Below, piece after piece: positions 5,190-48,198 of a stretch of 64,000 bases of DNA. Source of the stretch: Nanobdellota archaeon. GTDB taxonomy: Archaea; Nanobdellota; Nanobdellia; Pacearchaeales; GW2011-AR1. Below the pieces are notes generated by a model. It saw nothing but the letters and a program-made list of their open reading frames with translations, made no database searches and was not told where the DNA came from. Each line of letters opens with the position of its first letter. Position 1 is the first letter of the stretch. The translations under genes and the position numbers were made by a program. Where the stretch lies: NCBI GenBank assembly GCA_022561055.1, contig JADFRY010000004.1:35243-99242 (forward strand), written 5' to 3'.

Positions 5190-6269
5190 ATGGTACTTGA
5201 TTTTGCGAAAGAGGCTATAGAAAATGTTCAGACTCACAGCATCAACTTTGATGAGTTAAGGGCTGGGAAAGCCAACATTAAGGTTTTTGGTTGTGGTGGT
5301 ATGGGAAATAATGCTGTGACTTGGCTGTTTAATAAGGGAATTAATGGCGCTACTGTTTATGCGATAAATTCTGATGCTTTGCATTTGAGTATAACAAAGG
5401 CTGATGAGAAGATTCTTATTGGAAAAGAGTTGACTCGTGGTTTAGGTGCAGGCGGTAGACCTCAAATTGGAAGAGAAGCAGCTAAAGAGTCTTTATCTGA
5501 ATTGAAGAAAGTAACAAGCAATGCTGATATGATATTTGTTCTTGCTGGAATGGGTGGCGGAACTGGAACTGGAGCAGCTCCCGTTGTTGCACAGTTGGCA
5601 AAAGAGAGCGGTTCAGTAGTAATTGGTGTTGTAACCATGCCGTTTGAATGTGAAAAAGCAAGGATGGACAAGGCAGAGTTTGGTTTACAAGAATTGAGAG
5701 AAGTTGCTGATACAGTAATTGTTATTGATAATAACAGACTTGTTGATATTGCTGGTAATTTGCCGATGGAACAGGCCTTTGCAGTAGCGAACGAGCTAGT
5801 CAGTACAATGATTAAGGGAATTGTGGAAACAATTACTCTTCCTTCATTGATTAACTTAGACTATGCTGATGTTTCTGCTATTATGCGAGGTGGAGAAGTC
5901 GCAGTTATTGGTGTTGGAGAATCTGATAGTCAGTCAGCGAGAGTTGATGAGGCAGTAAGACAGGCGTTAACGCACCCTTTATTAGATGTAGATTACAAAG
6001 GTGCGACAGGCGCTTTAGTTCACGTGACTTGTGGGCCTGACTTTAAATTAGAAGAGTTTGCCGGTGTTGGCCAGTTAGTTACAGAGAATATAAGTCCGGA
6101 TGCCCAAGTTATTATTGGTGCTAGGATAGATAAAGACTTTGGTAATAAAGTTAGAGTCATTACAATTATGACTGGAGTTTCGTCGCCTTATGTTTTAGGC
6201 AAAGAAACCCGTGCAGATGCTGCACCATCACCAGAGATATCTGACCTTGGTATAGAAGTCTTCAGATAA
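5190..6269 (+). CDS. ftsZ: cell division GTPase FtsZ
   Basis: GCGGMGNNAV and the tubulin signature GMGGGTGTGAAPVVA, plus NELV/T7-loop-like segments. GGAGG-like tract upstream. Confidence 0.95.
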   Translation: MVLDFAKEAIENVQTHSINFDELRAGKANIKVFGCGGMGNNAVTWLFNKGINGATVYAINSDALHLSITKADEKILIGKELTRGLGAGGRPQIGREAAKESLSELKKVTSNADMIFVLAGMGGGTGTGAAPVVAQLAKESGSVVIGVVTMPFECEKARMDKAEFGLQELREVADTVIVIDNNRLVDIAGNLPMEQAFAVANELVSTMIKGIVETITLPSLINLDYADVSAIMRGGEVAVIGVGESDSQSARVDEAVRQALTHPLLDVDYKGATGALVHVTCGPDFKLEEFAGVGQLVTENISPDAQVIIGARIDKDFGNKVRVITIMTGVSSPYVLGKETRADAAPSPEISDLGIEVFR

Positions 6270-7203: not shown

Positions 7204-7240
7204 GCTTTTATTAAAGGAGTAAGATATAAAAAAGTTGTTA

Positions 7241-7527
7241 TGTCAAGGATTCTGGAGAGAACCACTTACTTTAGTGCGTGGATGAATCCTTGAGCACAAG
7301 AGAATTGCTCCAAGCTTTGCAATTCTCTGTGCAGAAAATTCTCTATTAAAAGAATTTTCTTGCATCCAAACCTCAAGAATGCTAACAATTGCATTCCGGG
7401 AGAATTCTCTAACATGAATTCTCCGGACCCGCGAATCCAAACTTACGAGGATTCGCACGGTCTTGATGGCACTCAAAAACTAAAAGTTTTTGATGAGTCC
7501 GAACAAAAAACGCAAAGACTTTTTGAT
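7241..7527 (+). repeat. multi-hairpin repeat element, expanded copy (candidate structured sRNA or MITE)
   Basis: Shares its 5' end and an identical 66-nt 3' end with copy 48003..48198. It carries extra palindromic modules at 7396-7426 and 7431-7456, plus a loop-1 insertion. Confidence 0.8.
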
Positions 7528-7580: not shown

Positions 7581-8684
7581 TTATCCAAATCTAATCTCTC
7601 CCCCACCCAAGACTTGTTCGCCTTTATATATGACTGCTGATTGTCCTTCTGCAATTCCTTCTATTGATTTTTTGAGTGTGCAATTATATTTTTTATTATT
7701 ATATTCTATCGAAACAGGAATTAGTTCACCGAGATGTCTGATTCTTACTTTTATTTTAGTGAGAGGAAATTTTGGCCGGTCATTTATGAAATTTATTTTT
7801 CTCATTATGAATTTTTTGCGGAATGCTTCAGGATGATTCTTAGGAGCTGCGATTAATATGTTGCTTTTTATTTTTTTGTTAATTATATACCATTTTTTTC
7901 CAGTTTTATTTCTAAATTCTTTATCAATATCGAAACCGAGTCGTGGTCCTATTCTTTCGCCAATTGTGTAAAACATTGTTCCATTATGATAGCCAAGAAG
8001 CTTTCCTTCAGGGTTTAGGATTTTCCCTTTTTTTTGTTTTATTTTTTGTTTTAAAAATGCTTTCATATTTACTTTTCCAATAAAACAAATTCCCTTTGTT
8101 CCTGGTTTATTATAATTTGGAAAGTTGTTTTTATAAGCTATTTTTCTTATTTCTTTTTTTGTATAGTTTCCTATGGGGAATAATGTATGTGCGAGGTCTT
8201 TTTGAGTTAATTCATATAGAAAATATGATTGGTCTTTTGTTTTGTCCTTTGCTTTTAAGAGAGAGAAACTGGATTTAGTTTTTTTTATTTTTGCGTAATG
8301 TCCTGTCGCTATGTAGCTTGCTCCGAGTTTTTTTGCTTCTGTCCAAAGAAAGGGGAATTTTATTATTTTATTACATAAAGAGTCGGGATTAGGTGTTAAG
8401 CTGCGAGCATAAGCTTTAAACATTGGATCAATTACATATTTCTTATATTCTTTTTCGAAATTTAATGTTATAAAAGGGATTTTAAGAATTGCAGCTATTT
8501 TTTGGGCGTCTTTTTTGTCATTAACCCAATTACACTGGCCAGTTATTTTGTCTTTCGTTTCAGAGAAATTTTTCATGAAAGCTCCTATAACTTTGTATCC
8601 TTGTTTTTTAAGAAGAAGCGCAGCTACGGTAGAGTCTACTCCTCCTGAAAGACCGAGGAGGATAGTTTCTTGTTTTTGTTTCAT
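7581..8684 (-). CDS. mnmA: tRNA-specific 2-thiouridylase MnmA
   Basis: PP-loop LSGGVDSTVAA, catalytic Cys contexts NPDSLCNKIIKF and KGICFIG, 367 aa. Confidence 0.9.
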   Translation of the reverse strand: MKQKQETILLGLSGGVDSTVAALLLKKQGYKVIGAFMKNFSETKDKITGQCNWVNDKKDAQKIAAILKIPFITLNFEKEYKKYVIDPMFKAYARSLTPNPDSLCNKIIKFPFLWTEAKKLGASYIATGHYAKIKKTKSSFSLLKAKDKTKDQSYFLYELTQKDLAHTLFPIGNYTKKEIRKIAYKNNFPNYNKPGTKGICFIGKVNMKAFLKQKIKQKKGKILNPEGKLLGYHNGTMFYTIGERIGPRLGFDIDKEFRNKTGKKWYIINKKIKSNILIAAPKNHPEAFRKKFIMRKINFINDRPKFPLTKIKVRIRHLGELIPVSIEYNNKKYNCTLKKSIEGIAEGQSAVIYKGEQVLGGGEIRFG

Positions 8685-8718: not shown

Positions 8719-8841
8719 CGTCCCGGGCTGGACTCGAACCAACGACCCCACGGTTTCTGAAATCTGCCGATTTCCGAGCAGATCAAAAATTGGCATTTTT
8801 AATCTTAACAGCCGTGTGCTCTACCACTGAGCTACCGGGAC
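8719..8841 (-). tRNA. tRNA-Asn(GUU) with a ~51-nt intron in the anticodon loop
   Basis: Reverse complement folds by hand as GTCCCGG-TA-GCTC-AGTGGTA-GAGC-A-CACGG-CTGTTAA-[intron]-CCGTG-GGGTC-GTTGG-TTCGAGT-CCAGC-CCGGGAC-G. No encoded CCA. Confidence 0.85.
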
Positions 8842-8905
8842 TTAGAGAAAAAAACGGGTGAGCTTATTTAAAGATTCCTGTCTTGATTTTTGAGTTGTAA
8901 GATCA

Positions 8906-9103
8906 TGTCAAGATGCTTTCGAAAGAGCATCTTGAACACAAGAGAATTGCTGACAATTGCAATTCTCTGCGCAGAAAATTCTCTATTAAAAGAATTTTCT
9001 TGCATCCTAACCTCAAGAATGCTTAAAAGTTGCATTCTTGAGGGCATTCAAAAACTTTCAGTTTTTGATGAGTCCTAACAAAAAACGACAAGGACTTTTT
9101 GAT
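8906..9103 (+). repeat. multi-hairpin repeat element, copy 2
   Basis: Collinear with 48003..48198. Hairpin 1 stem is changed on both arms (caagatgct/agcatcttg versus caaggattc/gaatccttg). Confidence 0.8.
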
Positions 9104-9111
9104 TTTAAATA
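9104..9111 (+). promoter_or_regulatory. TATA-like box TTTAAATA upstream of the first basic mini-ORF
   Basis: TTTAAATA lies 40 nt upstream of ATG 9144. Confidence 0.4.
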
Positions 9112-9143
9112 TAAGTCTTGTTTCTAATTTACGAGAAAGAGGT

Positions 9144-9203
9144 ATGCTACCATGGCAAAAAAGAAAAAAGCTAAAAAAAGCTAAAAAGAGAAGAAGAAAA
9201 TAA
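9144..9203 (+). CDS. 19-aa polybasic peptide (weak L41e-like pattern)
   Basis: Encodes MLPWQKRKKLKKAKKRRRK. GAGGT sits immediately upstream. An alternative ATG at 9152 gives MAKKKKAKKS. Below the ORF-track size cut-off. Confidence 0.35.
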   Translation: MLPWQKRKKLKKAKKRRRK

Positions 9204-9331: not shown

Positions 9332-9505
9332 ATGAACATGGTAGCAAGAAGAGCAACTACAGGAAGAACAACAAGAAGAGCAACTACAGGAAGAACAACA
9401 AGAAGAGCAACTACAGGAAGAACAACAAGAGAGACAACAAGAACAACAAGAGAGACAACAAGAAGAACAACGGCAAGAAGAGCAACTACAAGAAGGAGAA
9501 GATAA
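9332..9505 (+). CDS. 57-aa Arg/Thr-repeat peptide
   Basis: Encodes MNMVARRATTGRTTRRATTGRTTRRATTGRTTRETTRTTRETTRRTTARRATTRRRR. GAGGT precedes it, with a second in-frame ATG at 9338. Stop is TAA, followed by a T-run. Confidence 0.45.
   Translation: MNMVARRATTGRTTRRATTGRTTRRATTGRTTRETTRTTRETTRRTTARRATTRRRR
9347..9427 (+). repeat. 3 x 27-bp perfect tandem repeat (agaagagcaactacaggaagaacaaca)
   Basis: Units at 9347, 9374 and 9401 are identical by direct reading. They encode the RRATTGRTT repeats. Confidence 0.9.
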
Positions 9506-9692: not shown

Positions 9693-9794
9693 ATGACAAC
9701 AAAAAGAAAAACAAGAAGAACAAGAAAAACTGCAAGAAAGACAGTAAGAAAAACAACCAGAAGAAAGACAACCGTCAGAAGAAAAAGAAGATAA
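9693..9794 (+). CDS. 33-aa Lys/Arg/Thr peptide
   Basis: Encodes MTTKRKTRRTRKTARKTVRKTTRRKTTVRRKRR. GGAG lies 7 nt upstream. Stop is TAA, followed by a T-run. Confidence 0.45.
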   Translation: MTTKRKTRRTRKTARKTVRKTTRRKTTVRRKRR

Positions 9795-9858
9795 TTTTTT
9801 TTTGAGTAGTTGTTTGATTTTGGATTTTTTTTAGTGGTTTTTTGATAAAAGAGGTGGT

Positions 9859-32281: not shown

Positions 32282-32403
32282 GCGTTGTTAGTATAGTGGC
32301 AGAATGCAAGCTTCCCAACTACAACCTTTAAAAAAGGTTCTAGGAGTCCAAAACGGCTTTATGGAAAAAGCTTGAGACGCGGGTTCGATTCCCGCACAGC
32401 GCA
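32282..32403 (+). tRNA. tRNA-Gly(CCC) with a ~51-nt intron in the anticodon loop
   Basis: Hand fold is GCGTTGT-TA-GTAT-AGTGGCA-GAAT-G-CAAGC-TTCCCAA-[intron]-GCTTG-AGAC-GCGGG-TTCGATT-CCCGC-ACAGCGC-A. The D-stem is weak. Confidence 0.7.
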
Positions 32404-35670: not shown

Positions 35671-36141
35671 TTAATCGTCTCCTCCCCCTCCCTGGTCTGC
35701 TGCTGCTGGTTCTCTGACCTTGTCAGTCATCGTTCCTGTCGATGTTAAGTCAAGAGCGCTACCTGCTTTTCTGTATGTTATTGTTATGTCGGCTTTAAAA
35801 TTGTCTCCAGAACCTTGTCCTGTGCATAAGATAGTTATAGTGTCCATCGAGCCAGAAGGAATTGTCACACACAATATTGCTCGTGCCACAACTAACTCCT
35901 GATGGAAGGTTACTGAGTTGAGTGTAGCTTCTATACTAGTATATGTCTCTTCACCACTATTTCTTATCTCTATTTTTACGTTATTCGTGTCTACGCTCCA
36001 GGCATTTGCATGAAAAGGCGGGGATAATATTGTTGCTGCTGGTGAATATTGTCCTGGCGTGAAAACACCGAAGTACGCGAGTACGCCAATTGCAATGATT
36101 GCTGCCAGGATAGCCCAGCCATAAGTCATCAAGAACTCCAT
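35671..36141 (-). CDS. archaeal type IV pilin-like protein, paralog A (no start codon for a leader peptide)
   Basis: MEFLMTYGWAILAAIIAIGVLAYFGVF hydrophobic N-terminus, identical to paralog B. The in-frame upstream ..RKARGQAA has no ATG/GTG/TTG. Confidence 0.65.
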   Translation of the reverse strand: MEFLMTYGWAILAAIIAIGVLAYFGVFTPGQYSPAATILSPPFHANAWSVDTNNVKIEIRNSGEETYTSIEATLNSVTFHQELVVARAILCVTIPSGSMDTITILCTGQGSGDNFKADITITYRKAGSALDLTSTGTMTDKVREPAAADQGGGGDD

Positions 36142-36475: not shown

Positions 36476-36952
36476 TTAACCACCAGCTACAACTTTCTCA
36501 GTTATAGAGCCTGTCGATGTTAAGTCAAGAGCGCTACCTGATTTTCTGTATGTTATTGTTATATCACCTTTGAAATTGTCTCCTTCTGCTAGAGCAGTAG
36601 GGCCACACGGAGTAATTGCAAAGCTACTTGCATTGCCTGCAGCCATGATGAAATCAACAGGAGTAATTGTAGCACAGTTTTCAACATCAATTGATATTAT
36701 GGTAAAGGCCTCACCACCGTTATTTCTTAACTCTAGATTTACAGCATTAGCGGTTGCTTGTACGTTCCACGCATTAACATAGAAAGGTGCGGTGACTATT
36801 GCAGAGCCTCCTACAAATTTTCCTGGCGTGAAAACACCGAAGTACGCGAGTACGCCAATTGCAATGATTGCTGCCAGGATAGCCCAGCCATAAGTCATCA
36901 AGAACTCCATGGCTGCTTGCCCTTTTTTATCTTGCAGTCTCTTTATGTGCAT
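36476..36952 (-). CDS. archaeal type IV pilin-like protein, paralog B (class III signal peptide)
   Basis: MHIKRLQDKKGQAAMEFLMTYGWAILAAIIAIGVLAYFGVF, that is a basic leader, G/Q site and hydrophobic helix. Confidence 0.8.
   Translation of the reverse strand: MHIKRLQDKKGQAAMEFLMTYGWAILAAIIAIGVLAYFGVFTPGKFVGGSAIVTAPFYVNAWNVQATANAVNLELRNNGGEAFTIISIDVENCATITPVDFIMAAGNASSFAITPCGPTALAEGDNFKGDITITYRKSGSALDLTSTGSITEKVVAGG
36821..36919. repeat. 99-nt block identical to 36052..36150
   Basis: Compared base by base. Confidence 0.9.
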
Positions 36953-44313: not shown

Positions 44314-46476
44314 CTATTGGTTTATTATTTTTAACTTTTTTTCTTTTTCAACTTTCTTTTCAACTAGTTGGTCTCCAAGAATTGATTTTATTTCGTTTTT
44401 ATTAATTAATTTTATTAAGGTTTCTTTATTTTTATAATAGAAATTCATTACTTTGCCAAATTCGTTTAGGCTTCTGATTTTGTTTTTTAGAAGCCAAGAA
44501 AGAATTTTCTTTTTTTCTTCCATGTCTTTATTTATCTCTGTTTGTGGCATTCCTGTGTGTCTGCTTATGTTTTCAAAAAATCCAGAACTTTCGCTGTGCT
44601 TTATAATTTTGTCTTCTTCTGGTAACCATCGATAAAGTATATTTGCTTTGGCTCTATCTTCTTCTGCTTCAAATTCAGCAATTTGTAATATTCTTCTTAT
44701 TCCTTTTTTTCTGTCTCTGAACATTACAACGTTCAGATCAACGGCCTTTAGCAAGTTGGGTGGTACATTAATTGGAGGGTTAGTTAATCTTGAGATAGTT
44801 TCGGCTGCAGAATCTGCGTGAACAGTCGCGTAGACTGAATGCCCTGTGTGCATAGCTTCAAATAAAACCATGGCTTCTTCGTGTCTTCTCATCTCTCCGA
44901 GAACAATTCTGTCTGGCCTCATTCTTAATGAATTCACAAGCAAGTCAAGCATGCTTACTTCTCCCTTTCCTTCTGGGTTTGGAGTTCTTGTAGTTAAGGG
45001 TGTCCAATAAAGGAAATCTGGGAGCATTAATTCTCGTGTGTCCTCTATGCTGATTATTCTATGGTTTGGAGGTATGAAAGGCATGCATGCATTTAAAAAA
45101 ACAGTTTTTCCCGACGCTGTGCCTCCTGAAATTAATACATTCATTTCATATTCTATTGCAAGCCATAGTAAGGCAGCCGTGTCTAAGTCACATGTTTTAT
45201 TTTGTATTAAGTCTATTATAGTGTAAGGATCCCGTGCAAATTTTCTTATTGTTATAGTATTGCCTTTTGTATTTATAGGAAAAAGAACTGCGTTTATTCT
45301 ATCTCCTGTGACAAGATGGGCATCTAACAATGGAGTCAAAATAGTAATTTGTCTTCCGACTCTCCTTGCAATTATGTTTGCATAATTGATTATTTCTTCT
45401 TCTGTTTGTATTTTTAAGTTTGTAATTAACCAGCCGTATTTTTTGGTATAAACTCTTACAGGTTCTTTAGATGAGGGAATTACAATTTCTTCTAAATTTG
45501 GGTCATTTATTAAGAATTCTATTTTTCCCAATCCAAGCATTTCTTGCATTAGCGTTCCTACTAAAAACTCCTCTGTTTCTTTTCCAATTTTTGGAAGTTT
45601 TTCTTTTAGGAGTTTAGCTGTGTCTTTCATAAATCTCTCCTTTATTACAGAAAGCGCTTTTGGGTCAGTAAGTTCTTTCATGCTTATTGTCGTGATAGAG
45701 ATTAATTCGTTTCTTATATCGCTTAAAAGAATCTTTGTAGCAACATCTATTTTTGGGACATTTAAATTATATATAATTCCAAATTCATCCTTTTTTAGTT
45801 CTACATTAACTTTAGCTTTATCAACTTCAATTTCATATTTTTCTAAGAGTTCTCCTTCAATTTTTTGTTCTTGTTTTTTAGTAATTTTTTTTAAATGAGG
45901 TTGTTTTTTAGATACTGATTTTATTTTTGTAGTTTTAGGAGCTGGGGGAGGACCAGGTTTTTTGTAGGAGATTGGTTTTTCTTTTTTTGGTCGGACTGCT
46001 TTTTTTAAACTGTCTGATTTTTTAGTACTGCTAATTGAATCCAGAAGCTTTTCACCTTTTGATATTTCGTCTGATAGTTCTATAATTTTTGAGGAATCTT
46101 TTCTATATTTTTTGACTTTTTCAGAAATAATTTTTTTATAATTTTCTAGTTTTTTAAGATTTTTTTTATCACCTTTTAGTTCTACATCGTCGTAAATCTC
46201 TTTAAAAGATTTTTGTAATTCTATGTAAGAGTCCATTACGTGGTCTTTATTCAATACAGGAGTTTTTTTAATGAGCTTATTTTTTTCTATTTTATTTTTT
46301 GGCACTATTTTCTTTTGCTTTTTTTGTTTAGGAAATTTCCTTTGCTTTTTTTGCAATTCTTTTTTTATTTTAGGTTTAGCTTTTATTTTAGCTCTAACTC
46401 TGTATTTTTTCTTTTGCTTTTTTTGCAATTCTTTTTTTATTTTAGGTTTAGCTTTTATTTTAGTTTTTTTTCTCAT
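44314..46476 (-). CDS. FlaI/VirB11/GspE-family secretion ATPase with long Lys-rich N-terminal extension
   Basis: Walker A SGGTASGKTV, Asp box IISIEDTRELML, Walker B RPDRIVLGEMR, His box TGHSVYATVHA. Confidence 0.9.
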   Translation of the reverse strand: MRKKTKIKAKPKIKKELQKKQKKKYRVRAKIKAKPKIKKELQKKQRKFPKQKKQKKIVPKNKIEKNKLIKKTPVLNKDHVMDSYIELQKSFKEIYDDVELKGDKKNLKKLENYKKIISEKVKKYRKDSSKIIELSDEISKGEKLLDSISSTKKSDSLKKAVRPKKEKPISYKKPGPPPAPKTTKIKSVSKKQPHLKKITKKQEQKIEGELLEKYEIEVDKAKVNVELKKDEFGIIYNLNVPKIDVATKILLSDIRNELISITTISMKELTDPKALSVIKERFMKDTAKLLKEKLPKIGKETEEFLVGTLMQEMLGLGKIEFLINDPNLEEIVIPSSKEPVRVYTKKYGWLITNLKIQTEEEIINYANIIARRVGRQITILTPLLDAHLVTGDRINAVLFPINTKGNTITIRKFARDPYTIIDLIQNKTCDLDTAALLWLAIEYEMNVLISGGTASGKTVFLNACMPFIPPNHRIISIEDTRELMLPDFLYWTPLTTRTPNPEGKGEVSMLDLLVNSLRMRPDRIVLGEMRRHEEAMVLFEAMHTGHSVYATVHADSAAETISRLTNPPINVPPNLLKAVDLNVVMFRDRKKGIRRILQIAEFEAEEDRAKANILYRWLPEEDKIIKHSESSGFFENISRHTGMPQTEINKDMEEKKKILSWLLKNKIRSLNEFGKVMNFYYKNKETLIKLINKNEIKSILGDQLVEKKVEKEKKLKIINQ
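46341..46463. repeat. 51-nt block repeated identically with 72-bp period at the 5' end of the ATPase gene
   Basis: 46341..46391 equals 46413..46463 by direct reading. Encodes KAKPKIKKELQKKQ twice. Confidence 0.9.
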
Positions 46477-46482
46477 TTTTAG

Positions 46483-47976: not shown

Positions 47977-48002
47977 GCATTTATAAAAATTATGATGGAT
48001 TA

Positions 48003-48198
48003 TGTCAAGGATTCTGGAGAAAGAATCCTTGAACACAAGAGAATTGCTTACAATTGCAATTCTCTGTGCAGAAAATTCCTTTCAGGAGGAATTTTCTTGC
48101 ATCCAAACCTCAAGAATGCTAACAATTGCATTCTTGATGGCACTCAAAAACTAAAAGTTTTTGATGAGTCCGAACAAAAAACGCAAAGACTTTTTGAT
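48003..48198 (+). repeat. multi-hairpin repeat element, compact copy (candidate structured sRNA or MITE)
   Basis: Hairpins at 48006-48031, 48038-48065, 48068-48100, 48111-48136 and 48144-48164, plus an A/T-clamped tail ending in a T-run. Confidence 0.8.

Follow-up and report, generated by a model that had tools for sequence, protein, structure and literature searches.

Do compensatory substitutions in the stems of a repeated multi-hairpin sequence denote a gene for a structured RNA, or can they accompany a mobile piece of DNA? The question is raised by a 64,000-nt stretch of a Nanobdellota archaeon genome (contig JADFRY010000004.1, positions 35,243 to 99,242; the whole of it is called the window here), in which such a sequence occurs three times. 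The original prediction described the second copy as a functional RNA or DNA structure selected for pairing, and proposed to distinguish a small RNA (sRNA) gene from a miniature inverted-repeat transposable element (MITE). The window is archaeal, because it carries intron-bearing tRNAs, L15e, MCM, eIF-1A, archaeal type IV pilus genes and deoxyhypusine synthase. Our analysis comes down on the mobile-element side of that choice, although the element is not a classical MITE, as it has neither terminal inverted repeats nor a target-site duplication. With moderate confidence, we regard the copies as members of a family of non-autonomous mobile DNA elements of DPANN archaea that inserts in the manner of IS200/IS605-type transposons, like the palindrome-associated transposable elements (PATEs).

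The three copies, numbered 1 to 3 along the window, are collinear, and all lie on the plus strand; their hairpins are called hairpins 1 to 6 (P1 and H2 to H6; see Table 1 for coordinates). The substitutions first reported for copy 2 were verified. For hairpin 1, copy 2 has CAAGATGCT/AGCATCTTG, whereas copies 1 and 3 have CAAGGATTCT/AGAATCCTTG, so that both arms differ and complementarity is kept. At the top of hairpin 3, copies 1 and 2 have a T-A pair and copy 3 a C-G pair. The loops of hairpin 2 differ freely (TTACAA, TGACAA and TCCAAGCTTT); its outer CAC/GYG extension pairs throughout in copies 1 and 3, whereas copy 2 has one A:C mismatch there (A8938/C8970). The RNA fold z-scores of the three copies were -9.0, -10.0 and -8.2. 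Folded as DNA, the two strands of copy 2 were alike (-49.0 and -48.4 kcal/mol, z -8.2 and -8.6). An ATG-initiated open reading frame (ORF) of 50-57 aa is found in copies 2 and 3 but is broken in copy 1 by a 23-nt indel leading to an in-frame TGA, and the frame is not kept in relatives; the region is therefore non-coding, as had been supposed. Copy 1 also carries a 66-nt insertion that forms two more GAAT-rich hairpins; it may be nested or may have arisen through an internal duplication.

Relatives of the window copies were collected in two scans. A metagenome scan with the junction motif gave 14 true relatives, mainly on groundwater contigs, and a scan of one genome per species, with a pattern independent of the junction motif, gave 80 loci. 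A covariance model of the 137-position core of the element, with reverse-strand 'shadow' hits (up to 72 bits) filtered before counting, confirmed 72 of the 80; the other eight, in other organisms, had no covariance-model hit and were set aside as chance matches. All but one of the confirmed loci (71 of 72) are in metagenome-assembled genomes (MAGs) labelled Woesearchaeota, Pacearchaeota or Nanoarchaeota. The remaining one, L087, is in a MAG labelled Candidatus Liptonbacteria, a bacterium of the candidate phyla radiation. L087 is sequence-identical to a Pacearchaeota locus (L079) across the element and an intron-bearing tRNA, and its label is a probable mis-binning. The family is present in about 30 species, and in several of them between 5 and 8 contigs were hit (at most 8 per MAG). 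Several copies that are nearly identical, L010, L019 and L022 among them, have flanks unrelated to one another.

The family consensus begins with the left hairpin P1 (GUCAAG..CUUGAG) and continues with an optional H2-H3 pair, which is present in the window copies. There follow a highly conserved double hairpin H4-H5, reading CC-UCAAGAAU..AUUCUUGA-U-GG and, directly after it, CA-Y-UCAAG..CUUGA-UG, then a variable right hairpin and the tail UUUUUGAU. Type-A copies have a run of 5-7 T ahead of the element end, which is lacking in type-C members. In sub-family C the left flank is TATA and the right end ..CACTATA, and the left and right hairpins are similar to each other (GTCAAAGAC..GTCTTTGAC and GGGAAAGAC..GTCTTTCAC). 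The number of modules is polymorphic, since in L014 (minus strand, ~500-860) the H2-H3-H4 module is tandemly triplicated within a single element. Rfam gave no match to the element at gathering score or at E<=10, apart from noise-level matches (snoRNA, FasX, IS009; E ~1-10) that were dismissed. BLAST of the element against phages and plasmids gave no match, and two IMG/VR scans for a viral origin returned chance hits or none. No earlier description of such elements in DPANN archaea was found in the literature; a previously undescribed family of small mobile DNA elements is widespread in archaea of the Pacearchaeota/Woesearchaeota type.

Employing a MAFFT alignment of 68 distinct H4-H5 cores that had not been fitted to the structure, we scored 23 pairs. 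In these helices 96.6% of the cells were paired (85.9% in shuffles), and changes on both sides were seen in 19 of the 23 pairs. There were 202 compensatory cells, compared with 61 +/- 6.5 in shuffles; none of 500 shuffles reached the observed value, and controls with slid partners gave at most 28. Helix 1 (hairpin 4) was 97.7% paired with double changes in 10 of 12 pairs, and helix 2 (hairpin 5) was 95.3% paired with double changes in 9 of 11; each contains one conserved bulged nucleotide. Clearly, the covariation in the family is real, and the larger alignment bears out that pairing rather than sequence is conserved, contrary to the outcome that would have spoken against the original prediction. 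The mode of conservation is informative as well. G:T and A:C cells were 11 and 14, respectively, among 1537 cells of the core helices, and 10 and 12 among 586 cells of the H2 and H3 helices; the hairpins are kept through strictly Watson-Crick compensatory changes. RNA families normally carry a clear G:U excess on the transcribed strand, and because of this norm we infer that a pattern with neither G:U excess nor strand asymmetry is not the usual trace of RNA-level selection.

Comparison with relatives showed copy 2 to be an insertion. The gene order eIF1A-KH-(tRNA-Asn)-MnmA-nitroreductase-FtsZ is kept in the relatives L130-L135, and at the syntenic MnmA locus no element was found in the five closest available relatives (MnmA identity 66-72%), so that copies 1 and 2 are absent there. 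L130 (72% MnmA identity) has an empty site that reads ...GTTGTAAGATGGGTTTAAATATAAG..., and the window reads ...GTTGTAAGATCAT, then the 197-nt element (GTCAAG..TTTTTGAT), then TTTAAATATAAG.... Taking out 8907-9103 restores a length equal to that of L130, and no target-site duplication was found at copy 2 in this comparison. The predicted start at 8906 lies one base into the flank, the true start being 8907. L111 and L071 make up a second filled/empty pair. Copies 1 and 2 are lineage-specific insertions with sharp ends and no target-site duplication, and copy 2 is a precise 197-nt insertion between two divergent promoters, because the TATA boxes on both sides of it are conserved in L130.

The boundaries are sharp across the family. 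Among 32 unique copies, the left flank has T at -4 in 31, A at -2 in 28 and T at -1 in 29, followed by GTCAAG; T-N-A-T thus stands directly left of 27-31 of the 32 copies (chance expectation ~4%). From -5 to -70, no conservation was found in a second extraction (31 unique copies). The left motif varies (TTAT, TCAT, TAAT and others), and the right one is always TGAT: 36 of the 40 right ends listed are true termini, all ..TGAT, with unconserved bases after them, and the other four are internal TGAT matches of the end-finding pattern. The flank and right-end motifs differ at -3 only (TTAT and TGAT), and in sub-family C both are TATA. The ends, GTCAAG... and ...TTTTTGAT, are not complementary, and no terminal inverted repeats are present. 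Hairpins lie close to both ends: 1 nt separates P1 from the left end, and 7-8 nt separate H6 from the right end. Some copies begin 4 nt past the 3' end of a tRNA, and in L036 and L065 tandem copies abut head to tail, GTCAAG following directly on TTTTTGAT. These results established that the element inserts as a discrete unit directly 3' of a short T-N-A-T motif. They also show that the TGAT of an existing copy can be followed by a further insertion, which produces head-to-tail arrays.

Copies are strictly intergenic, often between promoters, and their orientation is not tied to the flanking genes. Of 78 copies in the window and the collected loci, 51 have their 5' end towards a divergently transcribed gene and 27 are co-oriented; this skew may reflect an insertion preference for AT-rich promoter regions, where TATA boxes often harbour TNAT motifs.

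The insertion signature resembles that of IS200/IS605 'peel-and-paste' elements and their transposase-less derivatives, and it is from this likeness that we infer an enzyme and a single-stranded intermediate. As in IS200/IS605-type elements, one DNA strand would fold into hairpins that a transposase recognises; an IS607-like recombinase using the shared AT core would be a variant of this scheme. Compensatory substitutions would keep the hairpins needed for propagation at the level of single-stranded DNA, or else the stems would be kept up by intra-hairpin templated repair; either process would account for pairing that is strictly Watson-Crick and equal on both strands. The location of all three window copies on the same strand is only suggestive of a strand-specific single-stranded intermediate, and the apparent 'promoter' and the neighbourhood of copy 2 would be incidental.

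The closest parallel is offered by PATEs, which are transposase-less derivatives of IS200/IS605-type elements in Haloquadratum walsbyi and have a longer hairpin-to-end distance at the 5' side (PMC3119063). Like PATEs, the elements described here have no inverted terminal repeats, palindromes near both termini and no target duplication, as well as a short oligonucleotide of 4-6 bp that marks the target at the 5' boundary, and a conserved oligonucleotide that closes the 3' end. Both are multi-copy and heterogeneous, and the left and right palindromes are alike (here in sub-family C). They differ from PATEs in having five to eight consecutive hairpins instead of two, an interior more conserved than the ends, a 5' hairpin only 1 nt from the end, and a DPANN host rather than a haloarchaeal one; furthermore, no related autonomous IS605/IS1341 element or tnpA/tnpB was found around the copies. 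Judged by this analogy, the element appears to work like a PATE, with an incomplete membership because a search around the copies for an autonomous IS605-type partner, the defining feature, gave none.

Covariation at the DNA level has precedents. In repetitive extragenic palindromic (REP) sequences and bacterial interspersed mosaic elements (BIMEs), and in the attC sites of integrons, hairpin structure is conserved since the recombinase recognises folded single-stranded DNA. The family shares with them an extragenic, multi-copy occurrence, covariation without RNA function, and palindromes that are imperfect, have variable tops above a conserved foot, and contain single extrahelical bases. In contrast to them, the hairpins here have one orientation and conserved linkers and form one unit of 100-350 nt with defined ends, and no RAYT or integrase was found.

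Several observations weigh against a mobile element of this type. In ~0.8 Mb around ~100 copies, including the window, there was no recurrent neighbouring protein family and no element with related ends that would be an autonomous Y1 (HUH) TnpA/TnpB element. Around the copies, no ORF of 280-650 aa has a C-terminal zinc finger of the TnpB type, no long ORF extends into the element, and neither tnpA nor tnpB was found in cis. A tblastn search with an IS608-TnpA-like query gave no match, a result that counts as a lead only. In the window, nothing transposase-like appeared among the best 25 of 106 families listed. Based on all-vs-all clustering of 552 ORFs from 83 loci, no protein family occurs in more than five loci; the five-locus clusters (a GTPase and a DisA-like protein) were rejected as conserved neighbours, the element being at different intergenic sites in them.

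The structure of the element raises further objections to an IS200/IS605-type mechanism. The interior H4-H5 is more conserved than the termini and is common to sub-families with different ends and to the intron and spacer versions described below, which is the reverse of what a purely transposase-defined MITE would predict. H4-H5 is tolerated, and perhaps used, in RNA. In IS608, a spacer that bears the guide tetranucleotide separates the left hairpin from the end; here there is no room for such a spacer, because the left hairpin begins 1 nt from the boundary. Finally, a single clean empty site allows T-N-A-T to be either the target or the first 4 nt of the element.

The chief rival explanation accepts a mobile element but takes its conserved interior, H4-H5 with flanking helices, to be a functional structured RNA, and we consider it possible, if tentative. 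In its variants, which taken together we hold to be possible to the same tentative degree, the module would be a guide-RNA-like scaffold for a nuclease encoded elsewhere, following the logic of omega-RNAs and IStrons, or a platform to which a host protein that binds or processes RNA would attach. No other part of the element is conserved as well as H4-H5 across three sub-families, whose termini differ, and the module occurs in contexts that are certainly transcribed. An 'intronic' version, closed by a CUUAAG/CUUAAG helix, was found in three places. At L079 it makes up most (7720-7810, minus strand) of a 150-nt intron of tRNA-Lys(CUU). In the Pacearchaeota rRNA operon L064, a closed ~100-nt H4-H5 (CUUAAG...GAACCGUAGGUGUCUUAAG) occurs twice, at 1520-1612 and 5430-5526; the two sites are identical over ~100 nt, with a left flank ending in AT. 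The L064 copy in the 16S-tRNA-Ala spacer runs exactly as far as the 5' end of tRNA-Ala. The other is 3'-terminal in an insertion in 23S rRNA at an LSU/2593-type site, a known group I site in these phyla (PMC6125680); 3 nt (TAC) separate it from the inferred 3' end of the insertion, where the placement of the junction is ambiguous. This insertion matches Intron_gpI weakly (21 bits, E 0.003; gathering score 50).

The geometry of the module fits an RNA as well: one conserved bulge per helix and helices that abut without a linker are typical of protein recognition, and an unconserved 3' flank is expected of a guide. However, no tnpB, iscB or recurrent gene adjoins any copy, the helices have neither G:U excess nor strand asymmetry, and no HEARO or other Rfam family matches. 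In type-A copies the run of 5-7 T would stop archaeal transcription before a flank-derived guide could be made, and, judged by their sequences, the versions in introns and spacers resemble discrete insertions too. An RNA-level role for H4-H5 may nevertheless exist.

IStrons, in which a group I intron is fused to an IS605/IS607 transposon whose right end encodes an omega-RNA, provide a model for such a combination (10.1101/2023.11.20.567912). The relation of TTAT to TGAT parallels that of target and right end, TGGG and TCGG, in IS607-type IStrons (10.1101/2023.11.20.567912). As in IStrons, a TTGAT/TGGG-like motif adjoins the left end and a near-identical motif closes the right end, the element boundaries match RNA processing sites, and the H4-H5 of L064 forms the 3' end of a group-I-like 23S rRNA intron. 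Unlike IStrons, the window copies are intergenic and have no ribozyme core, tnpB or recognisable omega-RNA, and the group I match of L064 is under the Rfam threshold (21 vs 50 bits). We rejected an IStron for the window copies, which are hairpin chains without a P3/P7 pseudoknot and gave no Intron_gpI hit. In a more far-reaching form, which we hold to be doubtful, H4-H5 would be a new functional RNA module of DPANN archaea, spread on transposon-like ends and colonising tRNA introns, rRNA spacers and group I introns, and would serve as a scaffold that either resembles a guide RNA or recruits proteins, and that marks sites of RNA processing by its position. If this were true, the module would be an archaeal, transposase-free cousin of the IStron/omega-RNA systems.

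It is improbable that the copies are independently transcribed genes for small regulatory or structural RNAs, each with a TATA promoter and an oligo-T terminator and with stems under RNA-level selection. The very stable folds, the strong covariation, the T-run at the 3' end of type-A copies, the unconserved ORF and the modular expansion of hairpins, as seen in many RNAs, are all consistent with such genes. Copy 2 does sit between tRNA-Asn and a basic mini-ORF and does end in a T-run motif (TTTTTGAT), as first described. The cttatttaaagatt box first described ~30 nt upstream of it, however, is the TATA box of tRNA-Asn, because it lies 23-33 nt upstream of that gene on the minus strand; like the TATA box of the mini-ORF, it is kept at the empty site of L130. 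No promoter at a fixed distance was found: 31 unique copies gave no positional signal of a TATA box or a B recognition element, and TATA-like words occur at random distances. Copies are missing from the syntenic loci of relatives, some directly abut a tRNA 3' end or another copy, G:U is no commoner than A:C, type-C members have no T-run, and no Rfam family matches. A stand-alone sRNA transcription unit does not fit lineage-specific insertions of this kind.

Least probable of all, and very unlikely in our view, is a domesticated, REP/BIME-like repeat acting on double-stranded DNA or as a cruciform, in which a dimeric DNA-binding protein would occupy arrays of TCAAG/CTTGA half-sites to organise the nucleoid, insulate transcription units or bring about termination: TCAAG...CTTGA does recur at least three times per element with regular spacing (P1 to H4, 11 nt; H4 to H5, 6 nt), and the element is symmetric across both strands and strictly intergenic, often between promoters, but covariation reaches the variable distal stems, which a half-site-binding protein would not constrain, and sharp ends, a target-like motif, presence/absence polymorphism and a patchy distribution among relatives favour mobility.

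Other classes were considered and set aside. Classical MITEs are likewise small, non-coding, multi-copy, strongly folding and polymorphic for presence/absence, but both terminal inverted repeats and target-site duplication were sought and neither was found. A TnpB/IscB omega-RNA was rejected since there is no adjacent tnpB or iscB, a T-run precedes the end, and neither HEARO nor any other Rfam family matches. On inspection of 100 family members, resemblances to hammerhead, box C/D, H/ACA, signal recognition particle and RNase P RNAs were dismissed. The hammerhead-like UGAUGA-GUCC..GGAC has no GAAA after the stem, UUUUUGAU being in its place; most members have no CUGA D box as in box C/D (K-turn) RNAs, and the stems have no internal loops as in H/ACA RNAs. 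No Rfam hits were obtained for any of these classes.

The coordinates of the window copies, the parts of copy 2 and its immediate surroundings are listed in Table 1. Copy 2 has tRNA-Asn on one side and a basic mini-ORF on the other; copy 1 lies between the oppositely oriented genes of MnmA and a nitroreductase, and copy 3 between a pilin-like gene and the gene of ribosomal protein L15e.

Table 1. Positions of the element copies, their structural parts and adjoining features in the window.
Feature	Position	Strand	Evidence or remark
Copy 1, 286 nt, left flank TTAT (7238-7241)	7242-7527	+	covariance model 115 bits
Two-hairpin insertion in copy 1, 66 nt, inside the 3' arm of hairpin 4	7397-7462	+	limits ambiguous by the dinucleotide TC
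tRNA-Asn(GUU), intron-containing	8719-8841	-	Rfam match, missed by ARAGORN; ortholog typed Asn
TATA box of tRNA-Asn (cttatttaaag), outside the element	8863-8873	-	kept in element-free L130
Left-flank tetranucleotide TCAT (family T-N-A-T), putative target motif	8903-8906	+	no duplicate on the right side
Copy 2, 197 nt, GTCAAG...TTTTTGAT, exact inserted segment	8907-9103	+	empty-site alignment with L130, family boundary statistics, covariance model 146 bits
Hairpin 1 (P1), TCAAGATGCT / AGCATCTTGA	8908-8935	+	1 nt inside the left end; compensatory changes against copies 1 and 3
Hairpin 2, AGAGAATTGC / GCAATTCTCT with outer CAC/GYG extension	8937-8971	+	optional module, missing from many family members
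Hairpin 3, CAGAAAATTCT / AGAATTTTCTTG with bulged T	8972-9002	+	optional module; top pair covaries relative to copy 3
Hairpin 4, CC-TCAAGAATGC...GCATTCTTGA-(bulge)-GG	9011-9044	+	most conserved part of the family
Hairpin 5, CA-(bulge)-TCAAAAACT...AGTTTTTGA-TG	9045-9070	+	abuts hairpin 4, no linker
Hairpin 6 (AGTCC / GGACT), right sub-terminal	9071-9096	+	nested hairpin frequent in relatives
Right terminal motif TTTTTGAT	9096-9103	+	element end directly after TGAT
TTTAAATATA, TATA box of basic mini-ORF (ATG 9152), outside the element	9104-9113	+	kept in L130
Copy 3, 195 nt, left flank TTAT (48000-48003)	48004-48198	+	covariance model 153 bits

Some features near the copies deserve mention in their own right. 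Two tRNA genes of the window, at 8719-8841 (minus) and 32282-32403 (plus), have introns of ~50 nt and were detected by Rfam and missed by ARAGORN. The tRNA-Asn ortholog in L130 (~1700-1900) has an additional 37-nt insertion in the D-arm region. The intron content of tRNA-Asn differs among close relatives, since the orthologs in L134 (9893-9965) and L135 are intronless and the window gene bears an intron. Three very basic mini-ORFs lie at 9144-9203, 9340-9505 and 9694-9795. The first would encode MAKKKKAKKS, or MLPWQKRKKLKKAKKRRRK in an alternative frame, each followed by a stop; it is kept with its TATA box in element-free L130, as MAKRKKKAKKKAKKRKKKR and a stop. It is probably a real tiny basic protein, judging from this conservation, and the window copy may contain a poly-A frameshift. 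The second contains RRATTGRTT repeats, and the product of the third begins MTTKRKTRRTRKT.

Farther away, a 72-nt tandem repeat at 46336-46479 lies within a FlaI/T2SSE-type ATPase gene (44314-46476, minus) and results in a duplicated lysine-rich N-terminal segment (KIKAKPKIKKELQKKQ). Adjacent paralogous ORFs at 35674-36141 and 36479-36952 (both minus) contain repeat segments found to be 86-88% identical (families D3 and D5).

What appeared to be a covarying sRNA is thus a documented case of compensatory stem changes that accompany a mobile DNA element. It calls for caution in covariation-based discovery of non-coding RNAs: an RNA gene is not to be deduced from clean compensatory changes alone when the hairpin element is multi-copy, and here the balance of G:U and A:C together with empty-site tests separates the RNA-gene and DNA-element readings. 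For the organisms concerned, the analysis defines a hairpin-rich repeat family in very small genomes of the Pacearchaeota/Woesearchaeota type, with no transposase found around the copies, and the occurrence of its conserved core in tRNA and rRNA introns and spacers links intron biology with mobile DNA in DPANN archaea.

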